A program made the position numbers and the translations under genes. Source: Verrucomicrobiota bacterium (GTDB lineage: Bacteria; Verrucomicrobiota; Verrucomicrobiia; Limisphaerales; AAA164-E04). From it: a stretch of 64,000 nucleotides of DNA. Each line of letters starts with the position of its first letter. The stretch's first letter is position 1. The notes beneath the pieces were generated by a model. It did not search any database. It was given only the letters and a program-made list of their open reading frames with translations, and was not told the origin of the DNA. The stretch spans positions 3,008,001-3,072,000 of the forward strand of contig CP170459.1 in NCBI GenBank assembly GCA_047947115.1, given 5' to 3'. Positions 2,820 to 44,523 of this stretch are shown here, in pieces.

Positions 2820-2972
2820 CCCCAAATATTTGGCAATTATTTGGTTTTCGACCATAGCGCACCAGAGTGCGCCACAGCAGACCACAAACTTGGTTGTAAT
2901 TGCAATGCGGTGCGAAAGTTTCTGGGAGCCAGATGGTTTTTGGGCCAAAAAGGGGCTAAAATCGAAGAAAAT
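2820..2972. repeat. Diverged copy of the prophage right-end att arm (44294-44446)
   Basis: Both copies share CCCCAAATATTTGGCAATTATTTGGTTT, GCACCAGAGT, GCAATGCGGTGCGAAAGTTTCTG and AAAATCGAAGAAAATTGG in the same order. Confidence 0.9.
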
Positions 2973-3306
<334 letters not shown>

Positions 3307-3315
3307 TGGAATTAA

Positions 3316-3372
3316 CGAAGAAAATTGGTTGCGGGGACAGGATTTGAACCTGTGACCTTCAGGTTATGAGCC
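3316..3372. repeat. Prophage att core, left (displaced 3' half of tRNA-fMet)
   Basis: 57-bp exact direct repeat of 44437-44493, adjacent to the integrase. Confidence 0.95.
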
Positions 3373-3507: not shown

Positions 3508-4806
3508 ATGTGCCTAGAAATTAGAAAGTCCAGCAAGTGGTGGTACGGGGTCTTCCGTATCAACGGCGAGAGGACCGTTATTAACCTGCGAGTCCCCATT
3601 ACCGGCAAGCGACCGCCTAAGCGCACCATGCTGGGTGATGACGAGTTTGAGCGGTCACGAGGGAGGGCGCAGCAGGCGTATGAAAAGCAATTCGAGCAGA
3701 TAGAATCCGACCGGACTGGGCAGAAGGCCGTCGCCAAGCTGGCCGAAATGAAGACCGGCAAAGTGGTAGCTTTCCCGGCCCTTGCTGAATTGCCATTGAA
3801 CTGGGATACGATCCCCAGACGCAAGCCCCCGTCCGAGCGATACCGGAACCAATGTCGACTTACTCTGGAACGATTTGCCAAGTATGTCACCAATCACCAA
3901 AAGGGAGCGGTTGAATTTGTTGCCGTCACTCCAAAGACGGCGAAGGATTTCATGGCTGCCGAGGAAGCACGCGGCATCAGTCCGAAGACTTGGAACGACA
4001 CCCTCAAACTGCTTCGGACCACCTTCAAGCATCTTCACCCAAGTTTGAACGATGGGAGTAACCCGTTCCACGGTCTGATTACCAAGGCAACGGAAACCAT
4101 TAACCGAATCCCGTTTACCGTCGAGCAACTCAAAGCAATAACGGAAGCCTGCACCGATGACGACATGATCCGCCCCGTCATCATTACGGGAATGTGTACT
4201 GCAATGCGGCGTGGTGATTGTTGCTTGCTTAAATGGTGCGATGTAGATCTGACCGCCGGATTCCTGACCGTCAAAACAGCCAAGACCGGTCAGACAGTGG
4301 ATATTCCGATTTTCCCCATGCTCAGAGAGGAGCTGAACAAGGCAATGACGGCAACTGCCGGCAAAGGATACTGTTTCCCTGATGCCGCGCTGATGTATCA
4401 ATCCAATTCTGACGGCATCACCTGGCGGGTGAAAAAGGTTTTGGCTCAGGCCCTGGAAGGCCAATCTTTGCAAGTCGCACGGAAGACTGGGAAAAGAAAA
4501 GCATCAGTTCATGACTTCCATTCCTTCCGGGTGACGTGGATCACGTTGGCTCTAGCATCCGGAGTCCCCCTGGAATTGGTTCAGCGTGTCACCGGCCACC
4601 GGACTGTTGAAGTCGTCATGAAGCACTACTTCAAACCTGGGCGGGAGGATTTCCGACAGGCTCTCCTTAAAAGCATGCCTCAAATGATGAGTGAAAAGGC
4701 GAGCGGTTCGGTCAAAGAGGAGATTCGTGCAATTTTGGAGAAAATGACTATTCAATCACTGGAGCTTGATAAACGGAAGTTGCTTGAACTTATTGATATG
4801 GTATAG
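3508..4806 (+). CDS. int: Tyrosine recombinase / phage integrase
   Basis: TAMRRGD (R), KTAKT (K), HSFR, and TGH...MKHY catalytic residues. Confidence 0.95.
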   Translation: MCLEIRKSSKWWYGVFRINGERTVINLRVPITGKRPPKRTMLGDDEFERSRGRAQQAYEKQFEQIESDRTGQKAVAKLAEMKTGKVVAFPALAELPLNWDTIPRRKPPSERYRNQCRLTLERFAKYVTNHQKGAVEFVAVTPKTAKDFMAAEEARGISPKTWNDTLKLLRTTFKHLHPSLNDGSNPFHGLITKATETINRIPFTVEQLKAITEACTDDDMIRPVIITGMCTAMRRGDCCLLKWCDVDLTAGFLTVKTAKTGQTVDIPIFPMLREELNKAMTATAGKGYCFPDAALMYQSNSDGITWRVKKVLAQALEGQSLQVARKTGKRKASVHDFHSFRVTWITLALASGVPLELVQRVTGHRTVEVVMKHYFKPGREDFRQALLKSMPQMMSEKASGSVKEEIRAILEKMTIQSLELDKRKLLELIDMV

Positions 4807-18192: not shown

Positions 18193-18716
18193 GCAACGAA
18201 TTTCATGACGATTGGATTCCTGACAACATCGATCCGCTCGATGCCCCAGATCAGGACTTCGACTGGGATAAGCTGTACGAACATCTGAACGAAGGTGTAA
18301 AAGGCCCGCAAACCGATCCAGAATTGGCTCAGGCTGTCGTTCGGCTTCTGCACCTGCTCCTACCGCCCAAGACAGGGCAAAGGCTCCAGGCGAAGAGTCT
18401 GGGGCTCCGCTTGATCGCCTTGGCTTGGTTGCTCAATCCTGGCTACTTCGAGGGGAGTCCATCCCTGAGGACCTTGGCCAAGCGTTGCGGGATTCGTCTG
18501 GCGTCGTTGGCGAACTACACGGGGCACTACAGTCGCTTGCTCAGATGGCGTAACCGGGCGCAGATCCATGCATGGAACTGGTGTCCCAGACGCCGTCCAC
18601 GTCACCGAGGACGGAAGTTGCAACGAAGGGTGAAGCGTAACGTTCGGAAGTTAGGAAAAGGGGCGAATACCAAGCCTGGATTGGGGATTAGTTCGGGCAA
18701 TGGAAGTAAGGCGTAA
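18189..18716 (+). CDS. Hypothetical HTH protein, candidate late regulator
   Basis: PSLRTLAKRCGIRLASLANY HTH-like segment; last gene of the early/middle block. Confidence 0.45.
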   Translation: MSNEFHDDWIPDNIDPLDAPDQDFDWDKLYEHLNEGVKGPQTDPELAQAVVRLLHLLLPPKTGQRLQAKSLGLRLIALAWLLNPGYFEGSPSLRTLAKRCGIRLASLANYTGHYSRLLRWRNRAQIHAWNWCPRRRPRHRGRKLQRRVKRNVRKLGKGANTKPGLGISSGNGSKA

Positions 18717-18916: not shown

Positions 18917-19492
18917 ATGAGCACATCCAAACCAAAAAAACGCGCAGGAGTTCCGCCAAATTCGCAAAAACCCCAGATAAATTGCGCTTTTGACGAGGTT
19001 GTTCCGCTCGAAAAACTCGTCCCAAATCCACGGAACCCGAACCAGCATCCGCCATCGCAAGTCGCGCTTCTTGCCAAGGTAATCGCCCATCAGGGTTGGC
19101 GTTCGCCGATTGTCGTTTCTCGTCGTTCTGGTTTCATCGTCTCCGGTCACGGACGTTTTGAAGCCGCCAAGGCATTGGGGTGCTCGCAAGTGCCGGTCGA
19201 TTATCAGGACTTCAAAACCGACGCGGACGAGTGGGCACATCTGGTCGCCGACAATCGGATTGCGGAGCTTGCCGAAGTTGATGCCAACGGAATCCGAGAA
19301 CTACTCTCCGAACTCAAAGCCGAGGACTTCGATTTGGATTTGGCTGGCTTCGACGCGAGCGCGTTGGAAGGCCTGTTGGCCGAGCCGCAAGAGCCCGAGC
19401 CACCAGAAGATTTCAAGCCAGTCGATGAGGACTTGCCGACCGAGTATCAATGTCCCAAATGCCAGTATCGCTGGAGCGGTAAACCTGCGTGA
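18917..19492 (+). CDS. ParB/Srx N-terminal domain protein with C-terminal CxxC
   Basis: LVPNPRNPNQH, GWRSPIVV, IVSGHGRFEAA, LVADNRIAELA and CPKC motifs. Confidence 0.88.
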   Translation: MSTSKPKKRAGVPPNSQKPQINCAFDEVVPLEKLVPNPRNPNQHPPSQVALLAKVIAHQGWRSPIVVSRRSGFIVSGHGRFEAAKALGCSQVPVDYQDFKTDADEWAHLVADNRIAELAEVDANGIRELLSELKAEDFDLDLAGFDASALEGLLAEPQEPEPPEDFKPVDEDLPTEYQCPKCQYRWSGKPA

Positions 19493-19740
19493 GCGACCCA
19501 TGTTCGAAGGATAAACTAACAGCCCTGCGTCATGCCATTGATGGTATCGATGAGGCAATCTGTGGTTTGATTGCCACTCGGATCGCCCTTTCACATCAAG
19601 CGCAAGAACTCAAACTTCAATCTCGAATCCCGACCTATGACCCACGACGTGAAATCGAAATCCAACAACGATACGAACGCCGATGGTGCGGGGCTTCGAC
19701 CGTTGCCCGCTCCATCTTGAACCTCTGCCGTGAAGACTGA
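19489..19740 (+). CDS. Chorismate mutase (AroQ / CM_2 type)
   Basis: LTALRHAIDGIDEAICGLIATRIALS....LK......YDPRRE matches the AroQ R..ID.ID...L..R......K......D..RE signature. Confidence 0.85.
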   Translation: MSDPCSKDKLTALRHAIDGIDEAICGLIATRIALSHQAQELKLQSRIPTYDPRREIEIQQRYERRWCGASTVARSILNLCRED

Positions 19741-20977
19741 CAAACCGCCATACCGCGTGCCAACGATGAAGGAGATAGCCCAGATCCCGGACAACGGACT
19801 GAGGCTAGTTTCCACTTTCAGCGGTTGTGGGGGATCATGCCTCGGCTACCGCATGGCCGGTTTTCGTGTTATTTGGGCCAACGAGTTCATCCCAGCCGGA
19901 GCGGATGTTTACCGCGCCAACAACCCGACGACGCACCTCGACACCCGTGACATCCGAAAAGTTCAGCCGGAGGAGATCCTTGAGATCACAGGATTGCAGA
20001 AGGGCGAACTCGATTGCTTAGAGGGCTCTCCTCCATGTGCCTCGTTTTCTACCGCTGGCAAACGGCATAAGCACTGGGGAAAAGCTAAACAGTACAGTGA
20101 CACCGTCCAACGAACGGATGATCTGTTCTTCGAGTTCACTCGATTACTGGAGGGGCTACAACCAAAGGTGTTCACGGCGGAAAACGTCAGCGGCTTGGTC
20201 AAGGGTGTTGCCAAGGGCTACTTCCTTGAAATCCTGGCCGAACTCAAATCCTGTGGCTACCGTGTAGGCTGCAAGGTGCTCGACGCTCAGTGGCTGGGTG
20301 TTCCTCAAGCCCGGCAACGAACGATCTTTGTTGGCGTTCGGGAGGACTTGGGCAAAGAGCCCGTTTTCCCGAAACCACTGCCATACCGCTATAGCTTGAA
20401 GGATGCTCTTCCCTGGATCGTGCGCGGCAAATACGGACCAACCTGGAAACAGGCAAACATCCCAAGTCCCACGGTCAACGCGCATGGTTCCTACAATCCT
20501 GAAACCAGCCACCAGGGTTTGGAGTTGGTCGAAGCCCGAATCGTGGGTGGCACCGGCGCGCCGTTCGATCACAAGGGCCAAGCGTTCGACCTGAATCAAC
20601 CATCACCTACGATTCTCGGGACCAAGCCGAATCAGTTCGAGGTCGACATGGGCCGCTTTGCCATCGGTCGGGAGTGGGACAAACTGAAACCAGGGGAGGC
20701 ATCGGGCAAATACTTCAACCTTGTGCGACCTCATCCCGATCATCCTTGCCCGACCATTTGCGCAAGCCACGGCCATCCCGGTGTTGCCAGTGTCACCCAT
20801 CCAACCGAAAAGCGGAAGCTCACCATCGACGAGTTAAAACGCATATGTGCATTTCCGGATGATTTTGTTTTAAGCGGAAGCTACTCCCAACAGTGGGAAC
20901 GACTCGGGAGGGCAGTTCCACCTGTCATGTCCTTTCACATCGCACGAACCATACGAGATGAAATCTTCAACCTTTAA
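19730..20977 (+). CDS. DNA cytosine-C5 methyltransferase-family enzyme, predicted carboxymethyltransferase
   Basis: Motifs I FSGCGG, IV GSPPC, VI ENV and VIII QARQR are present. Motif X reads GRAVPP rather than GNAVPP. Confidence 0.9.
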   Translation: MKTDKPPYRVPTMKEIAQIPDNGLRLVSTFSGCGGSCLGYRMAGFRVIWANEFIPAGADVYRANNPTTHLDTRDIRKVQPEEILEITGLQKGELDCLEGSPPCASFSTAGKRHKHWGKAKQYSDTVQRTDDLFFEFTRLLEGLQPKVFTAENVSGLVKGVAKGYFLEILAELKSCGYRVGCKVLDAQWLGVPQARQRTIFVGVREDLGKEPVFPKPLPYRYSLKDALPWIVRGKYGPTWKQANIPSPTVNAHGSYNPETSHQGLELVEARIVGGTGAPFDHKGQAFDLNQPSPTILGTKPNQFEVDMGRFAIGREWDKLKPGEASGKYFNLVRPHPDHPCPTICASHGHPGVASVTHPTEKRKLTIDELKRICAFPDDFVLSGSYSQQWERLGRAVPPVMSFHIARTIRDEIFNL

Positions 20978-21629
20978 CGTCCCCAAGCATTGGAGCTTTA
21001 AGAACGTAACCGTTGCAAAGCACTTCGACCAGCATGTGCGCGAATCCCTTCCGTGGTATGATCTGGCCACGAACGCTGTTGCGCATTTTGCCAGGCACTA
21101 CATCCCGCACAATGGCGTCGTTTACGACATCGGGGCATCTACCGGAAACATTGGCCACGCGATCAAGGAGACTCTTGTTCAACGTCAGGCGCAGTTTTTC
21201 GCCATTGAGGAGAGCCCGGAGATGGCAGAGCGCTATGACGGGCCACCCCAACTTGTCGTCGCTGATGCGGTGGCACATGAGTTCAAGCCCTTTGACTTCG
21301 CTGTGTGTTTCCTGGTGCTGATGTTCCTGCCAGTCGAAATACGGATGGAGTTCCTTCGCAAATTGCGAGGGCTCACCAAACCTGGTGGTGCCTTGGTTGT
21401 CGTCGACAAGGTTCAGATGCCAGCCGGGTATGTCGGAACCGCCTTCAGTCGCCTGACTATGCAGCAGAAGTTGGCTGTGGGAGCGAAGCCGGAGGAAATC
21501 CTGCGCAAAGAACTCTCGCTTGCCGGATACCAACGTCCGCTTGATCCGCAGACACTCCCCGAAGGAGCTTTGCCATTCTTCCAGGTCGGCGAGTTTGTCG
21601 GGTGGATCCTGCCTGCGGCCGAACGATAA
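20958..21629 (+). CDS. CmoA-like class I SAM enzyme (candidate carboxy-SAM synthase)
   Basis: WSF...VA..F..HVRESLPWY, VYDIGASTG, PGGALVVVDK, EILRK..L and FFQ..EF.G parallel E. coli CmoA as I recall it (WTF..VAEVF....RSVPGY, VYDLGCSLG, PGGALVLSEK, EISQK..L, WFQ..NF.S). Confidence 0.8.
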   Translation: MKSSTFNVPKHWSFKNVTVAKHFDQHVRESLPWYDLATNAVAHFARHYIPHNGVVYDIGASTGNIGHAIKETLVQRQAQFFAIEESPEMAERYDGPPQLVVADAVAHEFKPFDFAVCFLVLMFLPVEIRMEFLRKLRGLTKPGGALVVVDKVQMPAGYVGTAFSRLTMQQKLAVGAKPEEILRKELSLAGYQRPLDPQTLPEGALPFFQVGEFVGWILPAAER

Positions 21630-21632
21630 GTC

Positions 21633-22274
21633 ATGGCTGATGCTGGCGCCATCTCAACCACACAACTTGCTAAGCTCTCCGGGCTGAGTGATCGACGCCT
21701 TCGTGAACTGGCCAGCGAGGGGTGGTTCCCCAAATCATCCGATGGGCAGTATCAGTTGGTTTCCACGATTCAGGGATTGCTTCGTTATTACCGGGAACGG
21801 GAGCAATCCCGGATCATTCTCGATTCCTACGACAGCATGGGATCGTGTTCCGCTGCTACAGGCATTCCGATAACGACCATCAAGCAGGCCAAACGCCAGG
21901 GGTGTTCAGGATTTCGTGGGAGCCGTGTTTACCTGGCTCCGCTGCTTCGGTGGTTGTTCGAAGACACGGACGGTTCACAAGTCAACTACGACCATGAGCG
22001 GGCGCAGCACGTCGTCCTGCAAAACGCCAAGTTGAAGGTGGAGCTACGGCAACTCAAGAAGGAGTTGCTGCCGGTCGAGGAGGTCAAGCACTTGGGGGCC
22101 GAATTGGGTGCTGCGATTCGCAAAGTGATTTCACGACTGCACCGCTCCGCGCCTTCGCTGGAAGGACAAGACATCGACGTGATCGAATCACGACTCAAGG
22201 AGGAAGAGGACGAGATACTGAAGCAGCTTCACACCTTGGATGAGCGGTTCAAGTCTTGGGATCGAGCGGATTGA
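21633..22274 (+). CDS. Terminase small subunit (Nu1-like)
   Basis: N-terminal wHTH (LAKLSGLSDRRLREL..EG), a coiled coil and LLPVEEV; upstream of the GpA-type terminase. Confidence 0.7.
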   Translation: MADAGAISTTQLAKLSGLSDRRLRELASEGWFPKSSDGQYQLVSTIQGLLRYYREREQSRIILDSYDSMGSCSAATGIPITTIKQAKRQGCSGFRGSRVYLAPLLRWLFEDTDGSQVNYDHERAQHVVLQNAKLKVELRQLKKELLPVEEVKHLGAELGAAIRKVISRLHRSAPSLEGQDIDVIESRLKEEEDEILKQLHTLDERFKSWDRAD

Positions 22275-22284
22275 TTTCGTAGGT

Positions 22285-23106
22285 CTAAGGCTGGGGTGCT
22301 TCGAGGGGGTATTGCTCAGCCAATTCGGGAGCGATTCTGGAAAGGGCTTCGTGTGCTTCTCTTTGCCTTTGCCTCTGGAACATTTCATAGCGATTTCGAG
22401 GCCGAGTTGAATCCGTATCGACTGTGATTGAAACAAATGAATTTGTGATTGAGTTTAGGAGGATGGGAATACCGTTTGTGGCTTTTCTGTCAATTTTTGA
22501 TAAGTAAATGGCGGCTTCGAGTCGTACCGTGTTATCTGGATCATCGAGCATAGTTTTGAAGAAATTTTTCTTGTAGTCCCAGTGTTGGGTTCGTTTTGAA
22601 ATGGACTTGATCAAATCAAAGTAACCATCGGAAGACCCTTGCGACTTATAAGCCGGATACAATTCCATCAATTCTATCACGAATGGATCCAAATTTTCAA
22701 TTGGCAGGCCTTTGAGATATGAAAGGGCAATCTGCTTTTTATAAATACCCTTCACTTCGACTGGTAATAATTTTCTGATCTCGTCCGGAATTTTAAGGTA
22801 GAGCTCATAATAGGCCTTGCTGAGGGTTGAATCTGCTGAATGGATTTTGTTGATTAGGTAGGGAACGCTGTTTGTTCCCATATTTGAAAAAGCTACTTTT
22901 GCTGCGTTTATGGTGTCAGCAAGTCCCGGATGCCCTTGCTCCCCGTAGAACCACTCATCTGCATTTTTCCCTTCGTACACAGGTAAGTCTGAATCTTTCA
23001 TCAAAGCAATAAAGACTACTGCTGTCACTACTAACAAGAGAAACGCAAAGGATGCGGCAATAATGGCTTTATGTGATGGGGCTTTCATCTGCTCTTTGTC
23101 GATCAA
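22285..23106 (-). CDS. Membrane-anchored HEAT-like hypothetical protein (moron)
   Basis: N-terminal TM, YEGK...EW and LDDPDNTVRLEAA; AT-rich and antisense to the late genes. Confidence 0.65.
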   Translation of the reverse strand: MIDKEQMKAPSHKAIIAASFAFLLLVVTAVVFIALMKDSDLPVYEGKNADEWFYGEQGHPGLADTINAAKVAFSNMGTNSVPYLINKIHSADSTLSKAYYELYLKIPDEIRKLLPVEVKGIYKKQIALSYLKGLPIENLDPFVIELMELYPAYKSQGSSDGYFDLIKSISKRTQHWDYKKNFFKTMLDDPDNTVRLEAAIYLSKIDRKATNGIPILLNSITNSFVSITVDTDSTRPRNRYEMFQRQRQREAHEALSRIAPELAEQYPLEAPQP

Positions 23107-23678: not shown

Positions 23679-25445
23679 ATGCGAACGCCACGCCATCCCC
23701 TCATCGAAGGATTTTGCTCCGCCTGTCGCCCAGCCGATAGGCGGCCACCATGGCAATGGTGCGAGCAGCATGTCCAGGTTGATGAGACTTCCCCGATTCC
23801 TGGTCGGTGGCGTTCGGATGCCTCCCCTTGGGTGCGCGCAGTGATGGAGGATTTTGCCGACAACGCCATCCGGGACATTGCCGTTCAATGTGCGGCTCAG
23901 AGTGCCAAGACCCAAACGGTCATGAACTGCGCCTGCTGGGCCATCGCCGAGGATCCAGGCCCTGCCATGTGGGTGACGGCTACCAAGGATGAGCTTCGGG
24001 ATTTTATGCGGGACCGGCTTACGCCAACCTTCGAATCCTGCCGCCCGGTCAGGGATCGCATGGCCGAACCCACCTTGTCAGGATTCGCTTTCGACGGGAT
24101 GCCTTTCTACGCTGGTTGGTCGGGATCAAAAGCACGCCTGCAATCCAAACCCATCCGCTGGCTCTTTTGTGATGAGGTTCGCAATTACCCGCCTGGGCGT
24201 TTGGAGATGGTCCTCAAACGAACACGATCCTTCTGGAACTCTCGTCGGTTCCTGATCTCGACGCCCGGGACCAAGGGCGACGCCATGGACACCGCCTACC
24301 GGGCGGGGGATCAGCGTATCTGGCATTTTGAGTGCCCGAAGTGTCACCAGTTACAGCCGCTCAAGTTCGAGCAGTTGAAATGGGATTCTAACGACACGAC
24401 CAAGCCCGAAGGCAAATGGCGATTTGATCTGCTTGCCGAGACAATCCGGTTCGAGTGCGTTTCCTGCTCGCACAAGATCAAGGACACTCCCATTGATCGT
24501 CGATGGATCGAGAACCACGGGGAGTTTGTCCCCCAGAATCCCAACGCTCCACGATCCAAGGTTAGCTACACTTGGAACGCGCTCCTACCGCATTGGATCG
24601 AGTGGAGGTCGATTGTCGAGGAGTTCCTGGCTGCGGTCGATGCCATGCGCCTGGAGGGGGACATAGAGCCCATGTATACCTTCGTCACCGAAACCCTGGG
24701 TGAACCTTGGGACTTGGATCGGTGGCTGATTACGAGTGATGATTACATCCAGCAGCGTAAAGGGGAATACGATTTTGGCGATGCCTGGCCGATTGAAAAG
24801 ACAAGATTCATCGCAGCCGACAGGCAGGCCCGTGGCGGTGAGCATTACTTTTGGGTGGCTCGGGCCTTTGGGGCTGGTGGAGCAAGTCGCCTAATTGGTT
24901 ACGGCCGCTGCAACACGACGACCGAACTCGAAGAAATCCGAAAGCAGTTAAACGTCCCCGTCGTCAACGCCATGATTGATTCCGGGTTCAAGGCCTCTGA
25001 GGTTTATCGATTTTGCCAGGCCACGGGCTGGAAAGCGATGAAGGGTGATGACGCCGAGTGGTTCCTTACCCAAGACCCGAGGACTAAGAAGACCGTCCGC
25101 CGAGTCTGGCGTCGGGTGTTGGTTGATCCCACACTTGGGACCAAGAAATCAAGAGTCCGTCGACATCTTCCGCTCTTCCAGTGGTCCAACCCGAGCATCA
25201 AGGATCACTTGGCATTGTTTACGCACGGAGTAGTCGGGCAATGGTCGATACCGAGAACGACAGGCCGGGATTATGTCGATCAGATGACCGCCGAGGTCCG
25301 AGAGGAGAAAGAGGATTCACGAGGCCGCATCAAGGTCATTTGGGTTCAGAAGCGTCGGGATAACCATTACCTGGATTGTGAGTTGATGATTGATGCGGCG
25401 GCGATTATTACGAATGTGCTGAGGGCGAGTAGTGAATCGAGTTGA
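23679..25445 (+). CDS. Terminase large subunit, lambda GpA family
   Basis: AQSAKT, LQSKPIRWLFCDEV, ISTP, CPKC, ETLGEPW and RDNHYLDC motifs. Confidence 0.93.
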   Translation: MRTPRHPLIEGFCSACRPADRRPPWQWCEQHVQVDETSPIPGRWRSDASPWVRAVMEDFADNAIRDIAVQCAAQSAKTQTVMNCACWAIAEDPGPAMWVTATKDELRDFMRDRLTPTFESCRPVRDRMAEPTLSGFAFDGMPFYAGWSGSKARLQSKPIRWLFCDEVRNYPPGRLEMVLKRTRSFWNSRRFLISTPGTKGDAMDTAYRAGDQRIWHFECPKCHQLQPLKFEQLKWDSNDTTKPEGKWRFDLLAETIRFECVSCSHKIKDTPIDRRWIENHGEFVPQNPNAPRSKVSYTWNALLPHWIEWRSIVEEFLAAVDAMRLEGDIEPMYTFVTETLGEPWDLDRWLITSDDYIQQRKGEYDFGDAWPIEKTRFIAADRQARGGEHYFWVARAFGAGGASRLIGYGRCNTTTELEEIRKQLNVPVVNAMIDSGFKASEVYRFCQATGWKAMKGDDAEWFLTQDPRTKKTVRRVWRRVLVDPTLGTKKSRVRRHLPLFQWSNPSIKDHLALFTHGVVGQWSIPRTTGRDYVDQMTAEVREEKEDSRGRIKVIWVQKRRDNHYLDCELMIDAAAIITNVLRASSESS

Positions 25446-25567
25446 TACGCCATTTTTGCTTGAGTGCGGGAAATGTATCTTGTTGAATTCCACTATGGCC
25501 TAACAAGTTATGAGGCGCGTTTGAATATGCCCGTGTTGAGTTTTTGAAATCTAGATTGCATGCGCAC

Positions 25568-26299
25568 ATGAAGAATTTGGCGAAAAGACCAATGTGGAGG
25601 AGAAAACGATGGTTGGTTATCATCGTAGTGATTGCTGTGGTTTTTGGTGCCAGTGCAATCCGGGAATTTCGGATCAGTAAACTACCCCCGAAGGAGCGGC
25701 GGTTAAAAAACTCCCAGTTCAGTTTCAGGATAGCTTCATTAAAGTATCGCTGGGGAAGTCGCATGGTGGATGGGATTGAGCAAGTGACTGGCCCTATTGC
25801 AATAGCCAGCCAATTTGCTGACTATCTTGGTTCAAAAAAGAAAGTCGCGTCTGATGAATTACGAGACGCATCCCATTTCGCTTCTATTGAAATCGTGGGC
25901 ATTTATGAAGATCGACATGAATTTAATAACGCGGCTGCAAAAATACACCTCAAGGGACTCTCTAGAAATTCCACGTTTATAATCACAAAGATGGATGATC
26001 AAAAAAGGTTTCAGAACGGTGAATTGAGAGTCCCTAACCAATTCGCTGAACAAGCCAGAAAAATCTTGGACAACACGGAGGTGTGCATTGTTAAATCGTT
26101 CCCATATGACTCGGAAAAGGAGATCAGCCAAGCTGTGGATACAATGAGAGCAAAGGGTGTTCGAGCAGTTTCAATGTCTTTTCGAGATGACTTCGGTGAT
26201 CCTCATAAGTCGATTTTCGTGCTTACCGAGGATAAGGAAATTGCAGAACAGGCCTTAGAATCATTTCCACGAGTTCAGCCAATCCCTAACCCCAAATAA
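25568..26299 (+). CDS. Membrane-anchored hypothetical protein (moron)
   Basis: RRKRW plus a TM segment; lower GC than its neighbours; start codon uncertain. Confidence 0.6.
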   Translation: MKNLAKRPMWRRKRWLVIIVVIAVVFGASAIREFRISKLPPKERRLKNSQFSFRIASLKYRWGSRMVDGIEQVTGPIAIASQFADYLGSKKKVASDELRDASHFASIEIVGIYEDRHEFNNAAAKIHLKGLSRNSTFIITKMDDQKRFQNGELRVPNQFAEQARKILDNTEVCIVKSFPYDSEKEISQAVDTMRAKGVRAVSMSFRDDFGDPHKSIFVLTEDKEIAEQALESFPRVQPIPNPK

Positions 26300-44210: not shown

Positions 44211-44436
44211 TCCTGTCTATCGTTTCTACCTAAAGGATATGACGATCAGTTGTCAATTCCTTGAATAACGGAGCTCTCCAGCCCCCTCCAAACCCCCAAA
44301 TATTTGGCAATTATTTGGTTTCCGGCCATACCGCACCAGAGTAGACCACGGTGAACCCAAATTTGGACTGAAAACGCAATGCGGTGCGAAAGTTTCTGAG
44401 AGTCAGGTGGTTTTTGAGCCAAAAAGGGCTGAAAAT

Positions 44437-44523
<87 letters not shown>

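Follow-up and report, generated by a model that had tools for sequence, protein, structure and literature searches.

A stand-alone chorismate mutase within a predicted DNA cytosine carboxymethylation cassette of a Verrucomicrobiota prophage

Why would a temperate phage carry a chorismate mutase of its own, wedged between a ParB-like gene and a gene for a DNA cytosine transferase? The question is raised by a four-gene cassette at positions 18917 to 21629 of a 64-kb window, the whole stretch of 64,000 nucleotides from a Verrucomicrobiota bacterium analysed here. On the plus strand, it encodes a ParB-N domain protein of 191 residues (18917..19492), a stand-alone short AroQ chorismate mutase of 83 residues starting with GTG (19489..19740), a predicted CmoX-type DNA cytosine C5 carboxymethyltransferase of 415 residues, also with a GTG start (19730..20977), and a phage-type CmoA of 223 residues, the predicted synthase of carboxy-S-adenosylmethionine (carboxy-SAM or Cx-SAM; 20958..21629). 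Consecutive genes share 4, 11 and 20 nt, and 3 nt separate the cassette from the gene for the terminase small subunit (21633..22274, plus strand; phrog_57, E 6.1e-17). An earlier note, made from the DNA letters alone, had described just this arrangement and named the four families; all open reading frames are where it placed them, and Pfam, NCBIfam and PHROG matches agree with its family assignments. The same order, from ParB to the small terminase subunit, is found again in all five of the closest IMG/VR loci, among which two are near-duplicates, and is therefore not a matter of chance.

We consider it probable that this cassette serves a route from chorismate via prephenate and carboxy-SAM to 5-carboxymethylcytosine (5cxmC) in DNA, in which the mutase boosts the supply of prephenate. 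The mutase would convert host chorismate to free prephenate outside the mutase-dehydratase fusion of the host, CmoA would turn prephenate and S-adenosylmethionine (SAM) into carboxy-SAM, and CmoX would use the latter to carboxymethylate cytosine C5 of DNA. This is the route put forward in the earlier note, and it fits every sequence test that was run.

The core formed by CmoA, CmoX and ParB is a known, published system; the earlier note had likewise mentioned reported phage writers of 5cxmC. In Synechococcus phage S-B43 (Yang et al., Nat Commun 2025, PMC12783734), prephenate and SAM serve CmoA as substrates for carboxy-SAM; CmoX, which accepts Cx-SAM only, uses Arg350 to place the carboxymethyl group on cytosine C5, and CmoY adds glycine. 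The same work reports 5,615 CmoX candidates and 1660 ParBc sequences beside them, describes protection against HhaI by the mark that the S-B43 enzyme SpCmoX sets, and names the availability of prephenate across hosts as an open question (PMC12783734). The prophage resembles this system (structure 8YF3) in its adjacent CmoA and CmoX, the SPPC motif, the arginine in motif X, the His/Glu-type CmoA and the ParBc neighbours, and the chemistry of its own pair, taken over from these homologues, may well be the same. It differs in that its cassette is integrated, temperate and located beside terminase genes, lacks the CmoY ligase, has a CmoX that is 34% identical (BLASTP) with a different target-recognition region, and adds a chorismate mutase. 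The word "chorismate" is absent from the main text and the searched supplements of PMC12783734, one of them available in part, and the literature searched, which covers few subscription journals, holds no report of a mutase added to CmoA and CmoX. The dedicated mutase thus stands as the likely novelty, just as the earlier note had supposed.

Between positions 18600 and 22400 no sigma-70-like site was detected (shuffle mean 1.6), and terminator-like sites are near chance (7 versus 4.6). Contigs from RNA libraries of close strains span parts of the ParB, mutase and CmoX genes together with head genes in three of three runs; as they give neither strand nor level and may stem from DNA carry-over, we do not take them as proof of expression.

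The CmoX, CmoA and ParB proteins

The transferase matches DNA_methylase (PF00145, E 1.8e-54) and finds its best PDB match in SpCmoX (8YF3, E 4.9e-64), the next following at 4.2e-27. Its catalytic SPPC motif is formed by S100-P101-P102-C103, and Arg394 aligns with Arg350 of SpCmoX in motif X, which is the basic residue that the earlier note had pointed out there. Since SPPC and an equivalent of Arg350 are the two published criteria for CmoX (PMC12783734), and a cmoA-like gene directly overlaps its own, we assign the protein to CmoX and predict that it carboxymethylates cytosine C5 in DNA. The arginine in motif X is likewise present in the C5 transferases next to such mutases in all 47 loci, redundant ones included, where motif X is visible. 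As the target-recognition region differs from that of SpCmoX, specificity for GC cannot be assumed. SpCmoX accepts Cx-SAM exclusively and the host contains no other CmoA-like gene; the phage gene is therefore the sole candidate for a Cx-SAM supplier. In two other loci, CmoX carries an intein (Hint domain) just before the catalytic motif (L105, 3609-6014; L102, 2425-6014), and in L102 the CmoX frame is interrupted.

The CmoA-like protein matches phrog_4752 (E 8.5e-46), and its top NCBIfam match is CmoA (TIGR00740, E 1.3e-14), although with 54.4 bits it stays far below the 193.3-bit cut-off of the bacterial equivalog. In common with E. coli CmoA (4GEK; PMC4482062) it has the CmoA fold, the N-terminal W-x-F, the tyrosine and the residues of motif I; unlike in the E. 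coli CmoA/CmoB pathway for 5-carboxymethoxyuridine in tRNA, methionine and Arg199 are exchanged for His26 and Glu185, and the partner is a DNA C5 transferase. In E. coli CmoA, Arg199 is the sole carboxylate contact (PMC4482062), and the earlier note had raised the glutamate at this position as a caveat. The glutamate is real but the worry is weak: the biochemically proven SpCmoA shares both His26 and Glu185, so that the departure from TIGR00740 and from Arg199 excludes membership in the bacterial subfamily and not the activity. Among 243 distinct CmoA homologues, 222 combine His26, Thr62 and Glu185 with a basic residue at position 193 (Arg in 168, Lys in 54), the prophage protein having Arg193, while 18 combine Met26 with Val193 (14 of these with Arg at 185) and three are incomplete or variant. 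This pattern among sequences that are kin suggests a swap in which Glu185 and a basic residue 193 would compensate for Arg199.

Several properties of this protein speak against so close a parallel. It is only 24% identical to SpCmoA, it lacks the arginine of the E. coli enzyme, and its subclade is also devoid of an additional arginine at position 189, which in SpCmoA lies four residues after the equivalent of Arg199 and is present in 54 of 54 cyanophage-type proteins. Furthermore, Foldseek places O-methyltransferases of the CysG/BelI type (3e-15 to 1e-14) level with CmoA (2e-14 to 7e-14), based on a model of pLDDT (predicted local distance difference test) 80.6 whose first 30 residues are poor, and single-sequence E-values for the two groups are similar (3.6e-9 versus 2.3e-8). 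The subclade could accordingly consist of plain O-methyltransferases, for example carboxylate esterifiers, or the neighbouring transferase could write only 5-methylcytosine. We regard this as very improbable, since a profile of 58 sequences of the family ranks the CmoA structures 4GEK, 1IM8 and 4IWN first (E 3.3e-15), some six orders of magnitude ahead of CysG (1.1e-8), since SpCmoA has the same His/Glu pair, since a CmoX of the arginine type needs Cx-SAM in a host without cmoA, and since a neighbouring gene for prephenate formation makes sense only for a user of prephenate. Alignment of the prophage protein with SpCmoA by hhalign reaches a probability of 97.4. We therefore retain the prediction that it is a carboxy-SAM synthase acting on SAM and prephenate.

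The first protein of the cassette matches the ParB-like phrog_620 with E 1.1e-37, its match to Pfam ParB_N lying under the cut-off (E 7.1e-5), and ends in a CPKC motif. In the temperate-type CmoX sample, 75 of 79 loci have a ParB match. The protein likely assists or activates the DNA-modifying enzyme, a role proposed by analogy with the ParB-activated phage thymine dioxygenases (PNAS 2026, PMC13229309), which also combine a ParB-N protein with a neighbouring enzyme for post-replicative base modification. The writer is a different one in that case, and dependence of CmoX on ParB is putative.

The 83-residue chorismate mutase

The second gene product matches CM_2 with E 3.1e-10 and 40.5 bits (cut-off 27). 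Its model (pLDDT 94.2) has the three helices of an AroQ fold (residues 4-44, 52-65 and 70-82), and chorismate mutase folds take the first four places among its structural matches (Z 8.3-10.0; 1YBZ with Z 10.0, root-mean-square deviation 1.6 and 74 aligned residues, 1ECM with Z 8.6, 1.4 and 76), the next, unrelated fold following at Z 5.8; for a helical protein, Z values of about 8 to 10 are weak evidence when taken alone. A profile built on the mutase has its best PDB match in 5MPV (E 3.5e-9), the sequence of which contains the substitutions of an evolved, autonomous variant of MtCM, the intracellular AroQ-delta chorismate mutase of M. tuberculosis, ahead of wild-type MtCM (3.6e-6) and the lyase PchB (2.2e-3). 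With an offset of four residues, the key residues R14, R31, K42, P48, D51, R54 and E55 correspond to Arg18, Arg35, Arg46, Pro52, Asp55, Arg58 and Glu59 of MtCM. The four cationic residues of the active site (R14, R31, K42 and R54) and the Asp and Glu from the loop and second helix (D51 and E55) are invariant in all 24 aligned homologues, down to 32% identity, and P48 and R81 are each kept in 21. The ratio of non-synonymous to synonymous substitution rates (dN/dS) lies at 0.08-0.25 in all 13 pairs, slightly above that of the neighbouring genes in most pairs.

The protein belongs neither to the typical alpha class nor to the delta subclass of AroQ mutases. Its chain ends at residue 83 and therewith lacks the Gln88/Glu ligand for the ether oxygen on helix 3, and Lys42 is found in 24 of 24 homologues where MtCM has Arg46. 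MtCM itself has this arginine instead of the catalytic lysine and no Gln88 position, and its activity was raised 22-fold by changes to Pro52 and Asp55, residues conserved in efficient natural mutases (PMC7762937, PMC9910054). The prophage protein thus shares with MtCM and its evolved variant 5MPV the short AroQ fold, the equally short C-terminus and the missing Gln88 position, and differs from MtCM in having the lysine, a natural Pro48/Asp51 pair and a glutamate at the place of Gly86, as well as in being phage-borne with no DAHP synthase beside it. Should the offset of four residues persist up to the C-terminus, Cys80-Arg81 would take the place of Gly84-Arg85 of MtCM, and cysteine was allowed at position 84 in selections (PMC7762937, PMC9910054).

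Two of these features count against an efficient enzyme, namely the absence, as in the weak MtCM, of the Gln88/Glu residue that typical AroQ mutases have, and the glutamate where Gly86 dominated the MtCM selections. It is conceivable that CmoA and CmoX work as proposed and that the 83-residue protein contributes little prephenate, being a weak or partner-dependent mutase, a regulator that binds chorismate or prephenate, or an isochorismate lyase. The length shared with the AroQ-delta enzyme, NCBIfam matches that all lie far under their cut-offs, the existence of ligand-binding domains with an AroQ fold (5GMU is among the structural matches) and the close relatives without mutase would agree with this. 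Against it stand Lys42 instead of the arginine of the delta class, the very Pro/Asp pair that had to be introduced into MtCM (PMC7762937, PMC9910054), the invariance of all six site residues, and the E-value of PchB, six orders of magnitude weaker than that of the top mutase. We judge this explanation unlikely and propose that the protein would be active as a mutase on its own. A complex predicted for the mutase dimer and CmoA received a score of 0.00 (mark 0.32), which speaks neither for nor against an interaction.

Occurrence of the mutase and the supply of prephenate

Loci were collected by a scan with a CmoA alignment (best 80 of 209 viral matches plus 78 genome loci) and two scans with CmoX (best 80 each, of at least 594 and at least 587 matches). 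In the CmoX clade of the prophage, which comprises 54 redundant loci, the mutase lies between ParB and CmoX in 36, is missing in 14 and cannot be judged in four where the junction is not visible. When CmoX proteins are clustered at 90% identity, a mutase accompanies 16 of 21 clusters within the clade versus 3 of 101 outside. In these three (L069, L276 and L320) it likewise occupies the slot between ParB and CmoX, with scores over the Pfam cut-off and only 22-31% identity to the prophage mutase. Well-supported branches of a FastTree tree of CmoX, from which broken or motif-less rows were omitted, force at least four gains or losses of the mutase. In a poorly resolved mutase tree (62 rows, 96 columns), the group of Verrucomicrobiota phages (support 95) stands apart from L069, L276, L320 and the host domain, and separate origins of the phage mutase lineages appear plausible.

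A metagenome scan starting from the mutase itself yielded 45 loci, 30 of them distant and in longer frames. The other 15 are close homologues (at least 51% identity), with ParB directly upstream in 14 and CmoX downstream in 13; the remaining cases are one at a contig end and one exception, L340. Comparison with 50,697 GenBank phage records by tblastn returned a single weak bacterial match. Whole-record Pfam scans, mostly of fragments, detected a mutase in three of 50 records of one sample, all three included on purpose, and in none of the 47 others.

The co-occurrence that the earlier note had predicted hence holds for 36 of 50 clade loci and the three outside lineages but does not extend to most of the CmoX phages sampled, and a number of observations tell against a general need for the mutase. 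It is absent from 14 of the 50 clade loci, mostly as a clean gene-sized gap, and must be dispensable there; in 11 of 12 measurable cases ParB directly abuts CmoX. The three clusters outside the clade are a small minority, and none of the 50 records of a cyanophage-like set (48 contigs, S-B43 and Mcat8) contains a mutase. The homologue in L340 (51% identity; 579-1679) follows a B3/4-domain gene in a 1.8-kb contig free of ParB and CmoX, and the gene upstream has no Pfam match. Hosts, moreover, make prephenate anyway: all 18 host genomes checked have a mutase of their own in a long frame, and in 30 of 40 relatives of the host all mutase matches listed reside in frames of at least 336 residues, none of them stand-alone.

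The host of the prophage conforms to this picture. Its genome (6.08 Mb, 95.8% complete) encodes chorismate synthase, a single other chorismate mutase, PheA, fused to prephenate dehydratase and an ACT domain, and one prephenate dehydrogenase without CM_2 match; an AroH mutase was not found. The ACT domain of such a fusion is normally the site of feedback. The host genome gave no other match for a CmoA-like protein or C5 transferase, has no cmoA, and matches Methyltransf_9 only weakly (best E 5.7e-10), with no clear CmoB. As the host has PheA but no cmoA, the mutase likely boosts supply rather than filling a gap. It would raise free prephenate beyond what the single fusion releases, at a time of high demand, shortly before packaging, when modification has to reach many copies of the genome. 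The earlier note had called the pathway self-contained, which goes too far: chorismate and SAM still come from the host, which owns a mutase, and most sampled CmoX phages lack one.

Could the mutase simply be an auxiliary metabolic gene for the synthesis of phenylalanine and tyrosine that came to lie in this operon by chance? A rumen virome survey treats phage chorismate mutase as an auxiliary gene of amino acid metabolism (PMC10465536), and L340 documents the family outside the cassette. This reading is nevertheless quite improbable in view of the translational coupling of the mutase between ParB and CmoX, its recurrence at this position in lineages whose own mutases share no more than 22-31% identity with it, and the mutase already present in each of the 18 host genomes. 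In addition, no other gene of the aromatic pathway was recognised among the 47 window proteins scanned with Pfam, many prophage proteins being without family; two small sets among those scanned overlap the cassette. CmoA is the only prephenate user recognised in the prophage, and we continue to favour a mutase that feeds it.

The CmoY ligase, an asparagine-synthetase-like protein (PF00733), has three matches in the host genome and none in the window, hence none in the prophage, and for this reason the modification would stop at plain 5cxmC. Mutase and ligase occur together in one of 19 mutase clusters versus ligase in 41 of 103 other clusters; because kinship confounds these counts and L276 has both, we draw no rule of exclusion. 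L276 (534-3391) is the only sampled locus with both and has the order ParB-mutase-CmoX-CmoY-CmoA, a predicted full route from chorismate to the amide. In L116 (5156-5992), a member of the prophage's clade without mutase, a short CmoY-type ligase is present instead. Genes inserted between CmoX and CmoA encode an HNH-AP2 endonuclease, a protein of the uracil-DNA-glycosylase superfamily or a small cysteine-rich protein without Pfam match (L022, 5445-6029; L027, 4511-4906; also L095 and L120).

CmoA of the same subfamily also occurs in a second cassette with no adjacent CmoX (L126, 3481-6660; also L137, L141, L144, L088 and others), to which 49 of the 243 distinct CmoA proteins belong, many from Alphaproteobacteria. 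There, the order is ParB, a fusion of about 500 residues of a double ParB and a class I methyltransferase (phrog_5475, a family without functional label), a protein of about 140 residues (phrog_32036), which we take to be HAD-like from its motif, CmoA and the terminases. This cassette is a candidate for a carboxymethyl writer of another class; the CmoX paper reports that no N6/N4 candidates were found (PMC12783734).

The prophage and the meaning of the cassette

The cassette sits in a temperate prophage of about 41 kb that is integrated at a tRNA-Met gene (44447-44523, minus strand). An exact direct repeat of 57 bp marks its ends: the left copy (3316..3372) lies just ahead of the integrase gene (3508-4806) and the right one (44437..44493) overlaps the 3' end of the tRNA gene. 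The prophage further encodes a family A DNA polymerase, an AAA_25 protein, both terminase subunits, a portal protein, an S49 protease, a tail-type protein and an NlpC/P60 protein, and its close relatives are labelled Verrucomicrobiota, on which its assignment to a host of this group is based. To its left, the attachment region is partly repeated (2820-3049; 85% over 231 bp to 44294-44515, with 40 bp exact at 2963-3002), which suggests that the site had already been used for an earlier integration.

The terminase genes are bordered by two genes with no family match (22285-23106, minus; 25544-26299, plus). GC content is reduced between 22001 and 23000 (0.465), and the genes that follow the small terminase differ among related loci, variable neighbours as expected of morons. 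In DNA run X1, one contig skips 1475 bases within the large terminase gene (23820-25296), possibly a defective variant in that population. GTAC, CTAG and CGCG are rare in the prophage (0.17, 0.25 and 0.43 for 9100-43000 versus 0.47, 0.61 and 0.87 in the host DNA sampled) and likewise in L001, possibly due to avoidance of restriction sites. Motif depletion gave no target for CmoX: GC is not depleted in the prophage, and CGCG was dropped as a clue given its value of 0.87 in mutase-positive and mutase-negative relatives alike.

The mark would protect phage DNA against restriction and, by analogy with SpCmoX, its benefit probably is restriction evasion. Protection is documented for SpCmoX against HhaI only, and the defence against CRISPR that the earlier note had offered as an alternative would be hypothetical. 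We put forward tentatively, at somewhat less than even chances, that temperate Verrucomicrobiota phages and at least two other lineages separately recruited a minimal, unregulated and autonomous mutase to the position between ParB and CmoX, where it would draw off host chorismate as a rate-limiting supply of Cx-SAM for bare 5cxmC as a final genomic base; phage chorismate mutases at present classed as auxiliary genes of amino acid metabolism would then mostly be genes for DNA modification. The rumen virome survey lists chorismate mutase, asparagine synthase and C5 methyltransferase as auxiliary metabolic genes (PMC10465536), which could be parts of Cmo cassettes; its readable supplements contain no match for "chorismate".

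With close relatives that differ by the presence of one 250-bp gene, and a set of three enzymes that can be expressed in E. coli, the cassette offers a direct test of prephenate availability. If the proposal is true, an enzyme of the shikimate pathway would be tied to phage DNA modification and some mutases now regarded as auxiliary metabolic genes would be reassigned to this function. The prophage would also provide a natural mutase of 83 residues with features that MtCM acquired only by directed evolution, as well as a CmoX whose sequence specificity probably differs and which could be of use in tools for carboxymethyl labelling.

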